Source of the DNA: Enterobacteria phage vB_EcoM_IME339
Sequence record: MH051915
DNA: 64,000 bases
Reading direction: 5' to 3' (one strand)
A program made the position numbers and the translations under genes. The notes under the pieces were generated by a model. It did not search any database, was not told where the DNA came from, and worked only from the letters and a program-made list of their open reading frames with translations. Position 1 is the first letter of the stretch; each line of letters opens with the position of its first letter. Shown piece after piece: positions 997 to 41,742 of the stretch.

Positions 997-2562
997 TTAG
1001 ATACCTTTAACATATACACGGCGGAAGTAAGCGTTTTTACCAAGGCTATTCAGAATAGAAGGCATACCGCTTTGAATGCGAGAAGCCGGAGCCTGAGCAG
1101 CGGATTCTGCAAATGGGTTGATACCGATACCGTAACGAGTTTTGAATCCCATTACTGGTTGGAAGTTCTTCGGATCGGAACCACGCAGCGGAGTCAGAGC
1201 TACATATGGAGCATAGTAAATACCAGCATCCATTTCGTTCGGACCTTTATAACCTACAGTGAAATAATCCTGTTTAGCATACTGGTCGATATATACACGG
1301 TATTTACCACCCAGAACACCAGCAAATACTGACTTGGTAGTATCAGTGTTAAAGCCGGTAGCCAGACCTTGTGCAGCATAAGAAATGCCAGTATCAACTG
1401 AAGCCAGAACGTTAACTACGTTACGGGAAGCGATAATGAAGTTACCTTCACCACGACCGGTCTGACGAGCAATTTCAACTGCTTCTTTGTCAATCTGGAA
1501 CAACAGAGCTTTAAAGGATTCACCCGCCCAGCGAGCACCACGAATATCAATCGGATCCTGGAAGTCAAATACACCAGCTTTAGAACCCGGAGTCAGGGTC
1601 ATACCAGATTTACCAACCTGGGCTGAGTAGTTAATCCAATCAACAACTTCGCGGTTGATTTCCAGCATGATTTCGGTAGCCAGAATACCAGACAGTTCAG
1701 CATCAGCATCCATACCGTGAACAGCGCGGAGGTCTTGTGCTAATTCGATAGAGTAAGCAGCTTTCAGCTGGCGAGATTTAGCTTCGATAACTTGTTTATC
1801 GATACGGAAGCCCATTTCATTCCATGGGTTATCGGTAGAACCGTTGAAACTTTCCTGGAGTTCAGCGATAGAAGTAGCCATACCTTCAGCGATTTCTACC
1901 AGTACACCAGCTTCCATTTGTTTCTTAATTTCAGCATCTAATTTAGCTGCGTCAGTTGCACTAGTATCAATTTGCTTAACTTCTGTAGCTTGCAGATACA
2001 CAGTACCAGTGTCCTGGAAGAAGTGGGTGTAAATAGTTCCAACTTCAAGAGTATCACTTGCTTTCAAAGCAGCGAATTTCTTAGCAGCACCCTGACCAGA
2101 GAACATTGCATCTGGGCCATACATTGGGTGGAATGCTTCTTTAGCACCGGAAGCGATTGGGTCTTTACCATATACTGCGCGCAGTGCGAATACCTGGCCA
2201 GTCGGGCTGTTCATCGGCTGAACACCGCAAATATCGAAAGCAATCAGGTTAGGAATAGCACGACGTACCATACCCATAACAGCTGGGCCAATCTGAGTTA
2301 CTGCGCCAGAAGTCTGACCAGCAGCGATGTTAGTAGCATTGTAACCGTGGTCACCACCGATTTCAGCTTCTGTTAAGAAAGAACCGAACGCCTGAGCGAT
2401 TTTTTCGTCTTTGTACTCTGGAGCTGTCTGGAAATCTTTTTCCTGGTTTTCAAAGATTTTAGCGATAATCGCTTGTTTGCTATTAGCAATTTCCGGTAAA
2501 CCTTCACCTTCCAGTAATGGCTTCCATTTGTTCAAAAGTTCAGCTTTAGTTTTGATAGTCAT
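997..2562 (-). CDS. 23: Major capsid protein gp23
   Basis: 521 aa; MTIKTKAELLNKWKPLLEGEGLPEIANSKQAIIAKIFENQEKDF matches T4 gp23; correct length and position. Confidence 0.97.
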   Translation of the reverse strand: MTIKTKAELLNKWKPLLEGEGLPEIANSKQAIIAKIFENQEKDFQTAPEYKDEKIAQAFGSFLTEAEIGGDHGYNATNIAAGQTSGAVTQIGPAVMGMVRRAIPNLIAFDICGVQPMNSPTGQVFALRAVYGKDPIASGAKEAFHPMYGPDAMFSGQGAAKKFAALKASDTLEVGTIYTHFFQDTGTVYLQATEVKQIDTSATDAAKLDAEIKKQMEAGVLVEIAEGMATSIAELQESFNGSTDNPWNEMGFRIDKQVIEAKSRQLKAAYSIELAQDLRAVHGMDADAELSGILATEIMLEINREVVDWINYSAQVGKSGMTLTPGSKAGVFDFQDPIDIRGARWAGESFKALLFQIDKEAVEIARQTGRGEGNFIIASRNVVNVLASVDTGISYAAQGLATGFNTDTTKSVFAGVLGGKYRVYIDQYAKQDYFTVGYKGPNEMDAGIYYAPYVALTPLRGSDPKNFQPVMGFKTRYGIGINPFAESAAQAPASRIQSGMPSILNSLGKNAYFRRVYVKGI

Positions 2563-2580
2563 TTGTGTTAACCTTTAAAA

Positions 2581-3390
2581 TTAGAAACGAGATGCGACTT
2601 TCGCATATACACTTACAATATCTTCTGCACCAGGTGCAGTTTTATCTTCTACAGCTTCAGTGACGAAATTCAGTCCGGCTGCTTCAGTATCAGGAGTATT
2701 TATACCCTCAGTAATAGTGCTTTCATCTTTATTAGACTTCTTCACCATTTCTACGATGGCACTCAATTTACTTGAGAATTCATCTGAATAATCCATACCT
2801 TCGACCAGAGCAGAGACTTTTTCTTTTTGAGACTCAGTCAGATCTTTAGTACTTTCGCTCAATGCCACTTCACGCTGCACATAATTGATATATGCGTCAC
2901 GCTTATTGAGTTCTTCGAACAGACGAGCTGATTCTTCTTTATGTTCTTGCAGCTCTTCTTCCATTTCAGCTACAACATCAACTGATTCTTCTGGAACAAC
3001 AACGTTGTGTTCAACAAAGAGCTCTTTTAATCCACCAAGCATGGATTCAAACAGTTCGGCTTTGATGCCTTTATCAACTGCTAATTTATTTTCGGCGAGC
3101 CATTCTTTCGCAAGATGGTCGATGAATTTAGAAGCTTGCTCAGCGATTTTCTTCTCAGCTTTTTCTTCGGCTTCTTCTTTATTTTTTTCTACTTCTTCTT
3201 CTGCTTTTTCAGCAATTTTAGCGATATGAGATTCAGCTAATTTAACGGCGTGCTGCTTGACGGTAGCTTCGAATACAGTGCCGAAAGTTTCTTTTGCTTC
3301 CGGAGAAATATTAACTGATTCGAAAATACTATCAAGAGCAACGGAAGCATCAATTTTTTGCGCTTCAGCAATCAGTTGTTCTTTAAGCAT
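2581..3390 (-). CDS. 22: Prohead core scaffold protein gp22
   Basis: 269 aa, highly acidic coiled-coil, immediately upstream of gene 23 in T4 order. Confidence 0.9.
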   Translation of the reverse strand: MLKEQLIAEAQKIDASVALDSIFESVNISPEAKETFGTVFEATVKQHAVKLAESHIAKIAEKAEEEVEKNKEEAEEKAEKKIAEQASKFIDHLAKEWLAENKLAVDKGIKAELFESMLGGLKELFVEHNVVVPEESVDVVAEMEEELQEHKEESARLFEELNKRDAYINYVQREVALSESTKDLTESQKEKVSALVEGMDYSDEFSSKLSAIVEMVKKSNKDESTITEGINTPDTEAAGLNFVTEAVEDKTAPGAEDIVSVYAKVASRF

Positions 3391-3420
3391 TTTGTAGTCC
3401 TGTTGTTTAGATAATAATAT

Positions 3421-4059
3421 TTATAACGCTTTTTTCATGGCCTCTGCGAGAGCCATATAGGCGTCATCGGCACTTGTATCGGCTTCCGCCGTCTGTGATT
3501 CGGTAATTTCCTTAGGAGTTACCCATGCATCTGGAGCACTTGGACCCCATACTGCATCAACACCTACAGTTAATTTAAATCCTTCGTTTACGATACGATA
3601 ACCTTTATTTGTGTCAGTCAATGAACCTAATCCACGAGAAGAAACTCCTGGAATCCATCCGGCACGAATATTAGCTGCTAATTTATCTCCAGGACCATGG
3701 TCACCTTCAATAACACGAGCTCGTCCGTATACGTCATTTCCTTTCCACCACATATCTTCTATAATGATAGCGGCTTGCATCGGGTCAACATTAGCGCGTG
3801 GAGGATGATTTAATTCTCCGAGAGCTTGTTTAGTTAAAACTTGCTCATTGATATAGTCTTTTACCGCTTTTTCTAATATGCGTTTTGGATAAAGACGTTT
3901 ATTTCTATTGACGACTTCCGCTTGCATGAATATTCCTTCGATGTATAAACCAGGTTTTAAACCTAGGTCTTTTCCATCATGAGATTCAAGCATTGGCACG
4001 CCATCAATAATTTCGCCAGGTTGACCCCAAGTTTCAATTAGTAATTGGGGTTCATTCAT
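3421..4059 (-). CDS. 21: Prohead core protease gp21
   Basis: 212 aa; position between 68 and 22; length matches T4 gp21. Confidence 0.9.
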   Translation of the reverse strand: MNEPQLLIETWGQPGEIIDGVPMLESHDGKDLGLKPGLYIEGIFMQAEVVNRNKRLYPKRILEKAVKDYINEQVLTKQALGELNHPPRANVDPMQAAIIIEDMWWKGNDVYGRARVIEGDHGPGDKLAANIRAGWIPGVSSRGLGSLTDTNKGYRIVNEGFKLTVGVDAVWGPSAPDAWVTPKEITESQTAEADTSADDAYMALAEAMKKAL

Positions 4060-32276: not shown

Positions 32277-33016
<740 letters not shown>

Positions 33017-33045
33017 ATCTCATCAAAATTAATTAGGAAAATAAA

Positions 33046-33333
33046 ATGAAAACTTTCAAAGAATTTACTACAAAAACTACCCCGGTTTCTACTATTACTG
33101 AAGCTACTCTTACTTCTGAAGTTATTAAAGCAAATAAAGGACGAGAAGGTAAACCAATGATTAGTCTGGTTGATGGCGAAGAAATCAAAGGTACTGTTTA
33201 CCTAGGTGATGGGTGGTCTGCTAAAAAGGATGGTGCTACAATCATTATCTCTCCTGCTGAAGAAACTGCGTTGTTTAAAGCTAAACACATTTCTGCGGCA
33301 CATCTCAAGATTATTGCTAAAAATCTTTTGTAA
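33046..33333 (+). CDS. ipI: Internal protein I (IPI; capsid-packaged GmrSD inhibitor)
   Basis: 95 aa; N-terminal capsid targeting sequence MKTFKEFTT...ITE|A; early promoter upstream. Confidence 0.85.
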   Translation: MKTFKEFTTKTTPVSTITEATLTSEVIKANKGREGKPMISLVDGEEIKGTVYLGDGWSAKKDGATIIISPAEETALFKAKHISAAHLKIIAKNLL

Positions 33334-34367: not shown

Positions 34368-34440
34368 TGGGAATTAGCCAAGTTGGTAAGGCACTGGATT
34401 TTGATTCCAGGATGCAAAGGTTCGAGTCCTTTATTCCCAG
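34368..34440 (+). tRNA. tRNA-Gln (anticodon UUG)
   Basis: Hand-folded cloverleaf: acceptor TGGGAAT/ATTCCCA, anticodon loop TTTTGAT, T-loop GGTTCGAGTCC; no encoded CCA. Confidence 0.85.
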
Positions 34441-34441
34441 C

Positions 34442-34528
34442 GCGAGAATGGTCAAATTGGTAAAGGCACAGCACTTAAAATGCTGCGGAATGATTTCCTT
34501 GTGGGTTCGAGTCCCACTTCTCGCACCA
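34442..34528 (+). tRNA. tRNA-Leu (anticodon UAA)
   Basis: Acceptor GCGAGAA/TTCTCGC, anticodon loop CTTAAAA, long variable arm, encoded CCA. Confidence 0.85.
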
Positions 34529-34533
34529 AATTT

Positions 34534-34607
<74 letters not shown>

Positions 34608-34617
34608 ATTTAATTTA

Positions 34618-34691
34618 CTCCGTGTAGCTCAGTTTGGTAGAGCGCCTGATTTGGGATCAGGAGGTCCAAGGTTCAAATCCTTGTATGGAGA
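34618..34691 (+). tRNA. tRNA-Pro (anticodon UGG)
   Basis: Anticodon loop TTTGGGA, T-arm CAAGG-TTCAAAT-CCTTG; acceptor stem has two G-U pairs, so boundaries are +/-2 nt. Confidence 0.75.
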
Positions 34692-34693
34692 CT

Positions 34694-34783
34694 GGAGGCG
34701 TGGCAGAGTGGTTTAATGCACCGGTCTTGAAAACCGGCAGTCGCTCCGGCGACTCATAGGTTCAAATCCTATCGCCTCCGCCA
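34694..34783 (+). tRNA. tRNA-Ser (anticodon UGA)
   Basis: Acceptor GGAGGCG/CGCCTCC, anticodon loop CTTGAAA, long variable arm, encoded CCA. Confidence 0.85.
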
Positions 34784-34788
34784 GTTTT

Positions 34789-34864
34789 GCTGATTTAGCT
34801 CAGTAGGTAGAGCAACTCACTTGTAATGAGAAGGTCGGCGGTTCGATTCCGTCAATCAGCACCA
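34789..34864 (+). tRNA. tRNA-Thr (anticodon UGU)
   Basis: Acceptor GCTGATT/AATCAGC, anticodon loop CTTGTAA, encoded CCA. Confidence 0.85.
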
Positions 34865-34865
34865 A

Positions 34866-34940
34866 GGCCCTGTAGCTGGAAGGTTCAAGCAAGCGACTCA
34901 TAATCGCCAGATGGTGGTTCAATTCCACCCAGGGCCACCA
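34866..34940 (+). tRNA. tRNA-Ile (anticodon CAU, presumably lysidine-modified to read AUA)
   Basis: Acceptor GGCCCTG/CAGGGCC, anticodon loop CTCATAA, encoded CCA; T4 tRNA-Ile has a CAU anticodon. Confidence 0.8.
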
Positions 34941-34953
34941 AATTAAGAATTAA

Positions 34954-35040
34954 GGGGAGTTATCCCGTAGAGGTAGCGGTGTGGACTGTAAATTCATTGT
35001 CATTGCGACTCGGGTGGTTCGACTCCCATCGGTCCCCCCC
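34954..35040 (+). ncRNA. Candidate small structured RNA between tRNA-Ile and tRNA-Arg (possibly stable-RNA species 1/2-like or a degenerate tRNA)
   Basis: GGGGAGT at the 5' end can pair with ACTCCC near the 3' end; contains GGTTCGACTCC T-loop-like motif and a C7 run; no canonical cloverleaf could be folded by hand. Confidence 0.25.
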
Positions 35041-35045
35041 AATTA

Positions 35046-35121
35046 CGGGGCATAGCTCAGAAGGAAGAGCAAGGACCTTCTAAGTCCTAGGTCGTAGGTT
35101 CGATCCCTACTGCCTCGACCA
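35046..35121 (+). tRNA. tRNA-Arg (anticodon UCU)
   Basis: Acceptor CGGGGCA/TGCCTCG (one G-U), anticodon loop CTTCTAA, T-arm GTAGG-TTCGATC-CCTAC, encoded CCA. Confidence 0.8.
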
Positions 35122-35137: not shown

Positions 35138-35488
35138 ATGAAAGGTAATGTTTATTTAGTAGTTCATGATTTAACATTTTATTTTAATCACAATGACACT
35201 GTTATTTCTGAACGTGTAATTAATTTGCTTTATCAACATGCGGATTATGTTTATGTCGAAAACGAATATGGTCATTGGCAATTTCTCAAAAATCGTTCAT
35301 TTGGCTTAGATGGTTACGAATACTTTGAACGTAAAGACCTTTTAGATAAAATTTCGTTATCTACGCAATATCAAAATCACAAGTCTTTACACAAATGCCG
35401 ACTAATTCGAAATGCTGAATCTGCGTATGAAGCAATTGATTTATGGCGTAAACGCCGTGAACAGATTGATGCTTTAAAAGAATATTAA
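35138..35488 (+). CDS. Hypothetical protein
   Basis: 116 aa ORF immediately after tRNA-Arg with GAGGAAAATATG RBS. Confidence 0.6.
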   Translation: MKGNVYLVVHDLTFYFNHNDTVISERVINLLYQHADYVYVENEYGHWQFLKNRSFGLDGYEYFERKDLLDKISLSTQYQNHKSLHKCRLIRNAESAYEAIDLWRKRREQIDALKEY

Positions 35489-35827
35489 GAAACCGGGTCG
35501 CTACCGGTAAGTCGTCGGACTGATGTTCCCTGGGTAAGGACTGGCATTAACAAATCTTTACGATCTGTTAATGTCCCCTTACATCACAGCAGAAACGGCG
35601 CACAGAATTATCGATTCGAGGAAATATCTTTGCCGTAAGCCGAGTAGCGTTTTTGACGGAACGTTCGGATATGGTCGAGATATGGCCTTTTAAAAATATT
35701 GAGTAGCGTCAACTGCTTAATAACCGGGTTCGAATCCCGGCGTTTCGTACAAACACTTGCCTTAGCAGGTGGAACCCCGACAAGGTTGCCGCAAGGCTTA
35801 GCCCCGACCGAAAGGTTGGGGCTTTTT
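35489..35827 (+). ncRNA. ORF-free structured region; candidate non-coding RNA(s) ending in an intrinsic terminator
   Basis: No ORF of 60 aa or more on either strand; local hairpins (ACCGG-7nt-CCGGT at 35492-35508); canonical tRNA T-arm CCGGG-TTCGAAT-CCCGG at ~35724-35740; duplicated GAGTAGCGT motif; terminator 35801-35827. Confidence 0.3.
35801..35827 (+). terminator. Rho-independent terminator
   Basis: GCCCCGACC-GAAA-GGTTGGGGC stem-loop followed by TTTTT. Confidence 0.75.
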
Positions 35828-35829
35828 AG

Positions 35830-35837
35830 TATAAATA
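35830..35837 (+). promoter_or_regulatory. T4-type late promoter (TATAAATA) for the internal-protein-like gene
   Basis: Exact TATAAATA ~40 nt upstream of ATG 35878. Confidence 0.6.
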
Positions 35838-35877
35838 TAGTAGTATATTAAATCCACGAATTAAAACAGGAAATAAG

Positions 35878-36351
35878 ATGAAATCATATGCTCAATTTTT
35901 AAATGAAGCGGTGTTAAATGAAGCATCTAGCACCGAAATTCAAGCTGTCGCAAAAGCAGCCATTGCAGCGGGTAAATATTCCTATAAAGATGCTTCTGAC
36001 GAATCACGATTCCAATTTGCTCGCGACATGAAAGCAGAAGGATTTACGGGAAATGCAGTTAGTATGGCCTGGAAAAGTTTAGTTGCTACTGGCGCTGCTT
36101 TTGCAAAGGCTTCGGGTAAACCTGCTCCTAAAGCAGATCCTAAAGCTGCACAAGAAAAAAATATCGTTAAAGGAATTATCTCTAAATATGAAGCTATCCT
36201 TAAAGAGCTTTTAGTAATCAAAACCGAAGGCCAAAAGCTAGCCCGTGCTTATAGTTTCAAAGATAATCCGCATGTTCACTCTCTTGAGTATGTTGAAGAC
36301 ATCCAAAAAATTATTAAAGACCGCATTTGGTCTGCTAAACAAATCAAATAA
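35878..36351 (+). CDS. Internal-protein-like capsid-targeted protein (IPII/IPIII-type leader), function unknown
   Basis: 157 aa; N-terminus MKSYAQFLNE|A matches the T4 capsid targeting sequence and gp21 cleavage motif (L-x-E); Ala/Lys-rich; late promoter upstream; terminator downstream. Confidence 0.75.
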   Translation: MKSYAQFLNEAVLNEASSTEIQAVAKAAIAAGKYSYKDASDESRFQFARDMKAEGFTGNAVSMAWKSLVATGAAFAKASGKPAPKADPKAAQEKNIVKGIISKYEAILKELLVIKTEGQKLARAYSFKDNPHVHSLEYVEDIQKIIKDRIWSAKQIK

Positions 36352-36358
36352 CATTCTT

Positions 36359-36386
36359 AACCCCAGCCGAAAGGTTGGGGCTTTTT
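36359..36386 (+). terminator. Rho-independent terminator
   Basis: CCCCAGCC-GAAA-GGTTGGGG stem-loop plus TTTTT; near-duplicate of the terminator at 35801. Confidence 0.75.
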
Positions 36387-36504
36387 GGTATCTAGGCCTT
36401 TCTGGACCTCTCTAGTCATCATTTGGTTTATACCCTTTATAATATATTATCCTATCTTTTAATTGCCCCTCCCTGCCCTAGAATTCCCTAAAACTTTTTA
36501 AAAA

Positions 36505-40252: not shown

Positions 40253-40818
<566 letters not shown>

Positions 40819-40842
40819 TTCACAGTTACTTGGAGGGATAAA

Positions 40843-41259
40843 ATGACTCGTATTAATTTGACTTTAGTATCTGAACTTGCTGATCAACATTTAATCGCAG
40901 AATACCGTGAACTGCCGCGTGTTTTTGGTATAGTTCGTAAACATGTTGCAAATGGTAAACGGGTTAAAGATTTTAAAATATCTTCCGAGTTTATTTTAGG
41001 TTCTGGTCATGTTACGTTCTTTTATGATAAGTTAGAATTTTTGCGAAAGCGTCAATCAGACATTATAACGGAATGCTTAAAACGTGGGTTTAGTATAAAA
41101 GATACTGAAGTTCCTGACATCAGCGATATTCCAGCAGAATGGAAAAATGATTATAATCCATGCAAATCAGCTATTAAGTTGAGTCAACAACGACTCGATG
41201 AAAAAATTTTAATGAAGCCACACTGGTATAAATACTACGGTAAAAATATTTACATTTAA
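40843..41259 (+). CDS. denV: Endonuclease V (pyrimidine dimer DNA glycosylase/AP lyase)
   Basis: 138 aa; [17 protein letters not shown]...YKYYGK matches T4 DenV. Confidence 0.93.
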
Positions 41260-41268
41260 AGGAAACAC

Positions 41269-41742
41269 ATGAAAACATATCAAGAATTTATCACTGAAGC
41301 AGCTATTAATTCTCAAATTATTGCTGAATCTTTTACTGATCTTTTGAAATTTAAAAAAGGTCAAAAAATCACTGCTGTATTGGATGATGGTACAGAAGTT
41401 GAGATGGATGTACAGGGATATAATTATGCAGTAGATGGAAAACTGTATAATAAATCTCACGCTAAATTTGATTCATTTGACGACTTTGTTAATACAGTTG
41501 AAGATGAAAAAACTCGTAGATCAATTTCAACTGGCGATGCTAAGGTTCTTATGGCGCACGGCCATGAACGTATCCGCGCCAAACAGAATAAAATGGGTGA
41601 AGATAATTTTGCATTAGTTGGTTATCAATCTGGTAAGCAAACTTATGGCTATCAGCGTACTGCTACCATGTATAACAAAAATGGTAAAATCGCTTTCGTG
41701 AATAGCAAAGGCTCTATTCAGTACGTCAAATCATTCAAATAA
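41269..41742 (+). CDS. Internal-protein-like capsid-targeted protein, function unknown
   Basis: 157 aa; N-terminus MKTYQEFITE|A is a near-consensus T4 capsid targeting sequence; sits after denV rather than between e and denV as T4 ipII/ipIII do. Confidence 0.75.
   Translation: MKTYQEFITEAAINSQIIAESFTDLLKFKKGQKITAVLDDGTEVEMDVQGYNYAVDGKLYNKSHAKFDSFDDFVNTVEDEKTRRSISTGDAKVLMAHGHERIRAKQNKMGEDNFALVGYQSGKQTYGYQRTATMYNKNGKIAFVNSKGSIQYVKSFK

Follow-up and report, generated by a model that had tools for sequence, protein, structure and literature searches.

In a 64,000-nucleotide (nt) stretch of Enterobacteria phage vB_EcoM_IME339 (sequence record MH051915), here called the window, an open reading frame (ORF) of 157 amino acids (aa) at 35878-36351 encodes a so far unnamed protein that most likely belongs to the T4-type internal proteins (Ips). 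An earlier note on this DNA, made from the letters alone, had described an ORF of this length starting MKSYAQFLNE/A (a slash marks a predicted cut by the gp21 protease), and it is found exactly where the note placed it. The product is probably an internal protein that is packaged in the phage head, injected into the next host and likely directed there against a host defence. The parts of this reading are not equally secure. Packaging and processing of the product are very likely. A role against host defences of any kind, argued from the Ips of known function, is slightly favoured, while inhibition of type IV restriction specifically is, by the same analogy, a tentative suggestion. In the annotations and papers that were searched, the family has no name and is nowhere recognized as an Ip. 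Three findings go beyond the earlier note: a 36-nt repeat that flanks the gene, the wide occurrence of the gene outside the model phages, and the virion proteomics of a close homologue.

Leader, expression signals and virion proteomics

What places the candidate gene among the internal proteins? First, its N-terminus has the form of an Ip leader. The ten residues MKSYAQFLNE align with nine named Ips, among whose leaders are MKTYQEFIAE/A (T4 IPII and IPIII), MKTYQEFISE/A (RB32 Ip9), MKTFKEFINE/A (RB32 Ip7) and MKTYQEFITE/A (RB32 Ip4). Within the window this kind of start is specific to ip genes: the pattern MK[ST][YF]x[EQ]F begins just three of the 597 ATG-initiated frames of at least 40 aa, counted in all six frames, namely ipI (33046), the candidate and an Ip4-like gene (41269). 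Second, the leader has outlasted the rest of the protein. Homologues whose mature parts are only ~30-40% identical retain the form x-F-x-[EDQS]-[FI]-L-x-E/[AG], with leaders such as MKFKEFLAE/A, MLEYSEFLKELFCE/A, MLKFNEFLAE/G, MINFSDFLNE/G, MKSFSSFLNE/G and MITFNDILAE/G, and the cleavage motif L-x-E/[AGQ] is present in all family members. Among homologues of four genera and metagenomic relatives, the leader codons differ and small indels occur. Conservation at the protein level despite these differences shows that the leader itself is under selection, and because the codons differ between homologues, the shared N-terminus is more than a recombination scar. The earlier claim of a T4 capsid targeting sequence followed by a gp21 cleavage motif thus stands, both for the window and for divergent homologues.

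The leader carries a small complication. The L-N-E/A motif occurs twice (L8-N-E10/A11 and L13-N-E15/A16) because of a five-residue tandem duplication, LNEAV followed by LNEAS, so there are two gp21-type sites. The RB27 and Bas47 alleles lack the duplication, and their single site lies directly before [AQ]S[AS]S. The predicted cut at E15/A16 is therefore the one homologous to the site in the other alleles.

Third, the gene has the expression signals of a late gene, as the earlier note had proposed in giving it a late promoter and terminator of its own (Table 1). Read from its signals, the candidate is an insulated late cassette made up of the rnaC terminator, TATAAATA, a Shine-Dalgarno sequence, the ORF and the gene's own terminator. 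It is predicted to be expressed only late, because an exact TATAAATA lies upstream and a sequence scan found no sigma-70-like (early-type) promoter between the upstream terminator and the candidate ATG. Exact copies of TATAAATA are enriched in the window (21, against 9.2 +/- 3.1 expected; none of 100 shuffles gave 21), and the copy ahead of the candidate is conserved in place in four other phages: RB27, GRNsp7, Mosigvirus Bas47 and Jiaodavirus KpV477. In a five-phage alignment, the promoter, Shine-Dalgarno sequence and terminator are all conserved, with the AGGAA of the Shine-Dalgarno sequence invariant. The coding sequence is also under purifying selection: among seven alleles, the pairwise ratio of nonsynonymous to synonymous substitution rates (dN/dS) is 0.05-0.17, with dS up to ~1.5. 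The whole protein matches the profile of PHROG 2280 (E = 7e-61, residues 1-157), which carries no assigned function, and at 97.5% identity RB32ORF133c of RB32 is the same gene.

Fourth, a close homologue has been detected in a virion preparation. The g140 protein of Yersinia phage fD1, which is 98% identical to the candidate, was scored as particle-associated in liquid chromatography-tandem mass spectrometry of ultracentrifuge-purified virions (PMC8309999 Table S3). It passed the strict threshold of that study (two or more peptides, with spectral counts averaging 2 or more), and the fD1 authors flagged it as having no T4 counterpart (PMC8309999).

Table 1. Positions in the window of the candidate gene, its parts and flanking elements, and of related head genes
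Feature	Position	Strand	Details
Candidate coding sequence	35878..36351	+	ATG start, 157-aa internal-protein-like precursor, stop codon included; N-terminus MKSYAQFLNEAVLNEASS
Leader, residues 1-15	35878..35922	+	Capsid targeting sequence (MKSYAQFLNE) followed by the duplicated AVLNE; gp21 predicted to cut after E10 and E15
N-terminal three-helix domain, residues 18-75 (predicted)	35929..36102	+	AlphaFold2 pLDDT 80-91; signature AGKYSYKD..E.RFQF.RDMK..GF
Lys/Pro/Ala-rich flexible linker, residues 76-87 (predicted)	36103..36138	+	AKASGKPAPKAD; low pLDDT, non-helical
C-terminal antiparallel helical hairpin (long), residues 88-154 (predicted)	36139..36339	+	AlphaFold2
Late promoter, T4-type	35830..35837	+	Exact TATAAATA; 40 nt 5' of the ATG; abuts the rnaC terminator directly
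Shine-Dalgarno sequence	35868..35873	+	AGGAAA; 4 nt 5' of the ATG
Candidate's own terminator	36361-36380	+	GC-rich hairpin then CTTTTT; 10 nt 3' of the stop codon
36-nt direct repeat, upstream copy	35797..35832	+	rnaC 3' terminator hairpin (35800-35823) and T-run; last bases TAT begin TATAAATA
36-nt direct repeat, downstream copy	36356..36391	+	Holds the candidate's terminator hairpin and T-run; continues GGTATCTAGG
gp22 scaffolding-core protein	2581..3390	-	Pfam T4_CASP, E = 3.3e-90; structure that Ips are targeted to
gp21 prohead protease	3421..4059	-	Pfam Peptidase_S77, E = 1.5e-111; enzyme expected to cut the leader
ipI	33046..33333	+	Pfam IPI_T4, E = 2e-53; PHROG 4363 internal virion protein; in-window leader reference
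Ip4-like gene, MKTYQEFITE/A	41269..41742	+	TATAAATA at 41227-41234; named Ip4 in RB32, IpIV in PST

Mature protein, proposed role and rival explanations

The mature protein is basic (isoelectric point ~9.5, with 24 Lys+Arg against 16 Asp+Glu) and has a mass of ~15.5 kDa. AlphaFold2, run on an 8-sequence alignment (mean predicted local distance difference test score, pLDDT, 76; predicted template modelling score, pTM, 0.47), predicts an all-helical protein of two domains. The columns of the N-terminal signature are invariant across genera, and a similar Lys/Pro/Ala linker is found in all homologues. For the C-terminal part, two or more unrelated types occur, the Jiaodavirus and Tegunavirus homologues having a different one from the candidate. 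A third L-x-E site, L108-K-E110, lies within the C-terminal hairpin, and the residue after it is not small. No relative of known function was found in Pfam, NCBIfam, PDB sequences or a fold search; Pfam IPI_T4 does not match the candidate, and BLASTP and pairwise comparisons with T4 IPI, IPII, IPIII, Ip4 and other named Ips gave similarity limited to the leader. A diverged ipII, ipIII or Ip4 was rejected as the identity of the gene, since the pairwise similarity to these is leader-only. The earlier note had named clear identity to a characterized Ip as what would speak against a new protein, and on comparison the mature part is unlike any named Ip.

Two records depart from the usual domain arrangement. 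The KpV477 homologue (L009:3995-4231) ends at 78 aa, after the N-terminal domain and linker, where related Klebsiella phages have 177 aa; the protein may be truncated in nature, or else a frameshift arose in sequencing. In one database protein (P0013), a candidate-type N-terminal domain is apparently fused to the next ORF.

How might such a protein act? By the biology of T4 (Mullaney & Black 1996; PMC3012670), the candidate precursor would be made late in infection, its leader would direct it to the gp22 scaffolding core inside the prohead, and gp21 would take off 10-15 residues. The mature basic helical protein would then stay in the head with the DNA and enter the next host with it. By analogy with other Ips, it could neutralize a first-response defence in the new host before phage genes are expressed, and its target would most probably be a variant of a modification-dependent (type IV) restriction nuclease, as for the four Ips with a known target. 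Because the protein is predicted to be made only late, it could act on defences against incoming DNA only if it is carried in the virion.

The case for an anti-defence role comes from these four Ips. The GmrSD variant that is blocked differs between Ip1, Ip2 and Ip3, without cross-protection (PMC12373910), and the leader-bearing protein bas37_0260 inhibits McrBC (10.1101/2025.11.20.689424). The earlier note had pointed to T4 IPI as an injected GmrSD inhibitor. Together, three inhibitors of GmrSD variants and a fourth Ip that inhibits McrBC strengthen the prior for an anti-defence role of the candidate. IPIII is active in the cytoplasm without its leader (10.1101/2022.04.14.488369), and Ips are basic and Lys-rich (PMC3012670), as is the mature candidate protein.

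Three observations weigh against a packaged, injected anti-defence protein. First, in the fD1 preparation with g140, the proteins DenV, lysozyme and NudE were likewise classed as particle-associated, and 49% of gene products were detected in it (PMC8309999). The presence of DenV, lysozyme and NudE means that the detection of g140 proves expression and argues only weakly for packaging. Second, the family shows good conservation and purifying selection in four genera, which is less like the rapid turnover of an arms race and would also fit a housekeeping role in the head. Third, the mature part is unlike known Ips and anti-defence proteins in sequence or fold, so the suggested target is a guess by class.

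The second observation leads to the rival that survives best, although it is unlikely: the candidate may be an internal protein that is packaged but serves a general physical purpose and has no specific target among host defences. It could neutralize the charge of the DNA, help to package or eject it, or shield its ends. The excess of Lys and Arg and the Lys/Pro/Ala linker would suit such a job, Ip lysines touch DNA phosphates in T4 heads (PMC3012670), and the strongly conserved N-terminal domain and low dN/dS would suit a conserved partner such as DNA. However, T4, T2, T6 and PST lack the gene, yet package and eject their DNA normally. All four Ips of known function are specific restriction inhibitors (PMC12373910; 10.1101/2025.11.20.689424), and the swapping of the C-terminal domain between genera looks like a change of specificity.

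A second rival holds that the candidate is a late protein that is not packaged, its Ip-like N-terminus having arisen incidentally as ip cassettes with common 5' sequences recombined. Cassettes of this kind do shuffle via shared flanks, of which the direct repeats around the candidate are an example, and the fD1 virion preparation contained soluble proteins, both late and early, as contaminants. This explanation is nonetheless improbable: recombination among cassettes does not account for a leader kept at the protein level, with other codons and small indels, in four genera and metagenomic relatives, or for an L-x-E cleavage motif in every member.

A third rival starts from the scaffold itself, whose proteins gp22, gp67 and gp68 are degraded to peptides by gp21. 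The candidate could be an accessory of the scaffold core that enters the prohead and is likewise degraded; its work would then be done while the head is assembled, not in the next host. The logic of targeting and cleavage is the same as for core proteins, and L108-K-E110 could provide a further cut in the C-terminal hairpin. However, this is a single internal site, with no small residue after it, inside a confidently predicted helix. At least two peptides of the fD1 homologue were detected in mature virions, and the gene is dispensable in the model phages, so degradation in the scaffold is improbable. Finally, a chance ORF in an intergenic spacer can be dismissed: although the gene is annotated only as hypothetical, and in some records stands next to two spurious ORFs in rnaD and rnaC, the dN/dS and dS values, the mass-spectrometry peptides, the conserved promoter, Shine-Dalgarno sequence and terminator, and the 466 records with a full-length homologue leave practically no room for it.

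The locus, its flanking repeat and the distribution of the gene

The candidate lies 3' of eight tRNA genes and of rnaD and rnaC, and 5' of e.8. The earlier note had placed it at a non-T4 locus between the tRNA region and e.x-like ORFs, and comparison with other phages bears this out. In T4, ipI lies between 57B and trna.4, and ipII and ipIII lie between e and denV; the spacer between rnaC and e.8 has no gene. T2, T6 and PST have the same short spacer, empty of the candidate. The candidate is thus a dispensable, variably present cassette, and its site is a third ip locus. It is among the most widespread Ip-like genes, though T2, T4 and T6 are without it.

How could the cassette come and go? The two copies of the 36-nt direct repeat that flank the gene are 89% identical and 559 bp apart, which defines a 559-bp cassette. 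The upstream copy was identified as the rnaC 3' end by alignment with T4 and RB32 and from the rnaC annotation of RB27. The T4 spacer holds one chimeric copy, with an upstream-type stem (CCCCGACC) and a downstream-type tail (TTTTTGGTATCTA), and so matches the product expected of a crossover within the shared core. Gain or loss by recombination between the duplicated rnaC terminator hairpins would therefore explain why T4, T2 and T6 do not have the candidate. The annotators of RB32 had already marked RB32ORF133c as "flanked by 34 bp imperfect direct repeat" and kept it as hypothetical.

The neighbouring stable RNAs deserve a comment. Rfam gave no rnaC or rnaD match at the gathering threshold, so the ends of both were set by alignment with annotated T4 and RB27. 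Two ORFs that overlap rnaD and rnaC (35571-35693 and 35699-35851) are, by the same T4 and RB27 alignment, almost certainly spurious, yet they stand as coding sequences in records such as ESh16. A 116-aa ORF between tRNA-Arg and rnaD (35138-35488) is present in T2 and not in T4 or RB32. The tRNA cluster of the window lacks segB.

A full-length homologue of the candidate occurs in 466 phage records and is called "hypothetical" or "phage protein" in every match listed. In the same database, IPI is found in 281 records and Ip4 in 467, and NudE, at >=90% identity, in ~500. The candidate family is thus as common as Ip4, and commoner than IPI, in sequenced T4-like phages. Its annotation as hypothetical everywhere is apparently due to its absence from T2, T4 and T6. 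The family is small: a set of 5.8 billion proteins held 14 clusters of it, a profile run against 1.8 billion representatives returned only 13 proteins, none with a function, and a scan of viral contigs gained no new genus. Bas39 and Bas47 carry the gene. Many of the phages that have it are candidates for therapeutic use, with hosts among E. coli, Shigella, Yersinia, Salmonella and Klebsiella. Syntenic homologues behind a hairpin and TATAAATA are found in Mosigvirus Bas47, Jiaodavirus KpV477 and Tegunavirus fHe-Yen9-01, so that the layout of terminator, TATAAATA and Shine-Dalgarno sequence at this locus is common to Tequatrovirus, Mosigvirus, Jiaodavirus and Tegunavirus. In the T2 (AP018813) and T6 (AP018814) records, product names around this locus are largely wrong, having been carried over by similarity from mis-annotated records, and are no basis for conclusions; an e.4-like ORF, for instance, is called "major capsid protein", and segB "serine recombinase".

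In some phages the locus holds more than one leader-bearing gene. In pSs-1 and 164 other records, a second one lies directly 3' of the candidate and has its own terminator (gp150, 187 aa, MKTYAEFLTE/AAK; L007:2278-2841 in pSs-1). It is annotated as hypothetical everywhere and is not in the window, where its insertion point would correspond to ~36392. Phage fHe-Yen9-01 has three consecutive leader-bearing genes (L014:1700-3537) of 52, 189 and 178 aa, the last being the candidate homologue; a gap of 9 nt separates the 189-aa gene from the 178-aa gene, and one hairpin with TATAAATA precedes the two. The 189-aa protein is weakly similar to gp150 (E = 1e-4) and, in a full-length match, to the candidate (26% identity over 185 residues; single pairwise E = 4e-4). 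The proteins gp150, the 189-aa protein and the candidate share the locus, the leader type, a small N-terminal domain, a K/P/A-rich linker and a helical C-terminus, whereas their sequence similarity is marginal; they may be old paralogues. Judged by these genes, the interval between rnaC and e.8 is an ip hotspot.

A more far-reaching proposal, which as a whole is rather unlikely, would make this site, with the candidate and the leader-bearing genes beside it in other phages, an ancestral Tevenvirinae ip locus that T2, T4 and T6 have lost. The candidate would then be a two-domain injected effector, its N-terminal domain meeting a conserved partner and its swappable C-terminal hairpin setting the specificity, and its target would be a first-response defence other than GmrSD and McrBC, to which the known Ip targets belong.

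Comparison with known systems and genomic context

What is new here, and what is not? The Ip class is already known, and one more member would not surprise a specialist. The diversity of Ips has reportedly been recognized since 1994, when Repoila et al. are said to have set out the Ip4-Ip9 series of the T-even phages. A literature search for the names Ip5, Ip7 and Ip9 returned only unrelated papers, and one for RB32ORF133c found no paper. The papers on the Durham collection and on 5-hydroxycytosine do not mention the candidate gene.

The closest comparison is with the classical Ips. Like IPII, IPIII and Ip4-Ip9, the candidate has a ten-residue targeting sequence ending L/I-x-E/A (here the first slash separates alternatives) and a basic mature protein, in a phage that encodes gp21 and gp22; in both cases a late promoter and a terminator frame a small, non-essential cassette flanked by repeats. 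It differs from them in that its mature part has no detectable sequence similarity to theirs, in that it lies at the third locus, rnaC-e.8, rather than at 57B-trna.4 or e-denV, and in being nameless. Its conservation also extends to four genera, while the occurrence of the classical Ips is patchier, as the record counts of IPI and the candidate indicate. IPI*, the inhibitor of GmrSD from E. coli CT596, shares with the candidate the (for the candidate, predicted) late synthesis, removal of the leader by gp21 and co-injection with the DNA. However, IPI* is a 76-residue alpha/beta protein (PMC3012670), while the candidate is predicted to be all-helical, with two domains, and has no Pfam match. 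The window phage carries ipI besides the candidate.

Bas37_0260 is an instructive precedent. It was picked out by its Ip N-terminal signal and otherwise has no homology (10.1101/2025.11.20.689424), as is the case for the candidate. The two differ in that Bas37_0260 lies at the ipI locus and has a function established by knockout, and the likeness is drawn without a sequence comparison. The case nevertheless means that such leader-only genes can be real inhibitors of type IV restriction. A different kind of likeness is that to the promoter-early stem-loop (PeSL) modules found in T4-like phages (Arbiol et al. 2010; PMC4122927), in which a repeat consisting of a terminator hairpin and a promoter flanks a variable gene and serves as a substrate for recombination. 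The candidate differs in that its promoter is the late TATAAATA, not an early one, and in that the repeated hairpin belongs to rnaC, a stable RNA, as its 3' end.

Since all four Ips of known function disarm type IV enzymes, and do so narrowly, uncharacterized proteins that bear the leader offer the most direct way of finding new anti-defence factors that are injected and, through these, the defences that they target. Naming and testing the candidate family would close a real gap in predicting the host range of T4-like phages, although it would leave the understanding of the system unchanged in principle.

The rest of the window is that of a T4-like phage (Tequatrovirus), with the genes in T4 order read counter-clockwise. 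The genes for gp23, gp22 and gp21 occupy 997-4059 on the minus strand. On the + strand, the region of the candidate runs from gene 1 (31563) through 57A, 57B, ipI, ORFs like trna.4, trna.3 and trna.2, and the eight tRNA genes (34368-35121); it continues with the 116-aa ORF, rnaD, rnaC, the candidate, the genes from e.8 to nudE, e (40289), denV (40843) and the Ip4-like gene. The other two ip genes of the window differ in the promoters ahead of them. A good sigma-70-like early promoter precedes ipI (32975-33045: TTTACA, 17 nt, TACTAT), without an exact TATAAATA, and the late promoter of the Ip4-like gene lies inside the 3' end of denV. The order over 40289-41742 is e, denV, Ip4-like, compared with e, ipIII, ipII, denV in T4, which means that the second ip locus is rearranged and has a different content.

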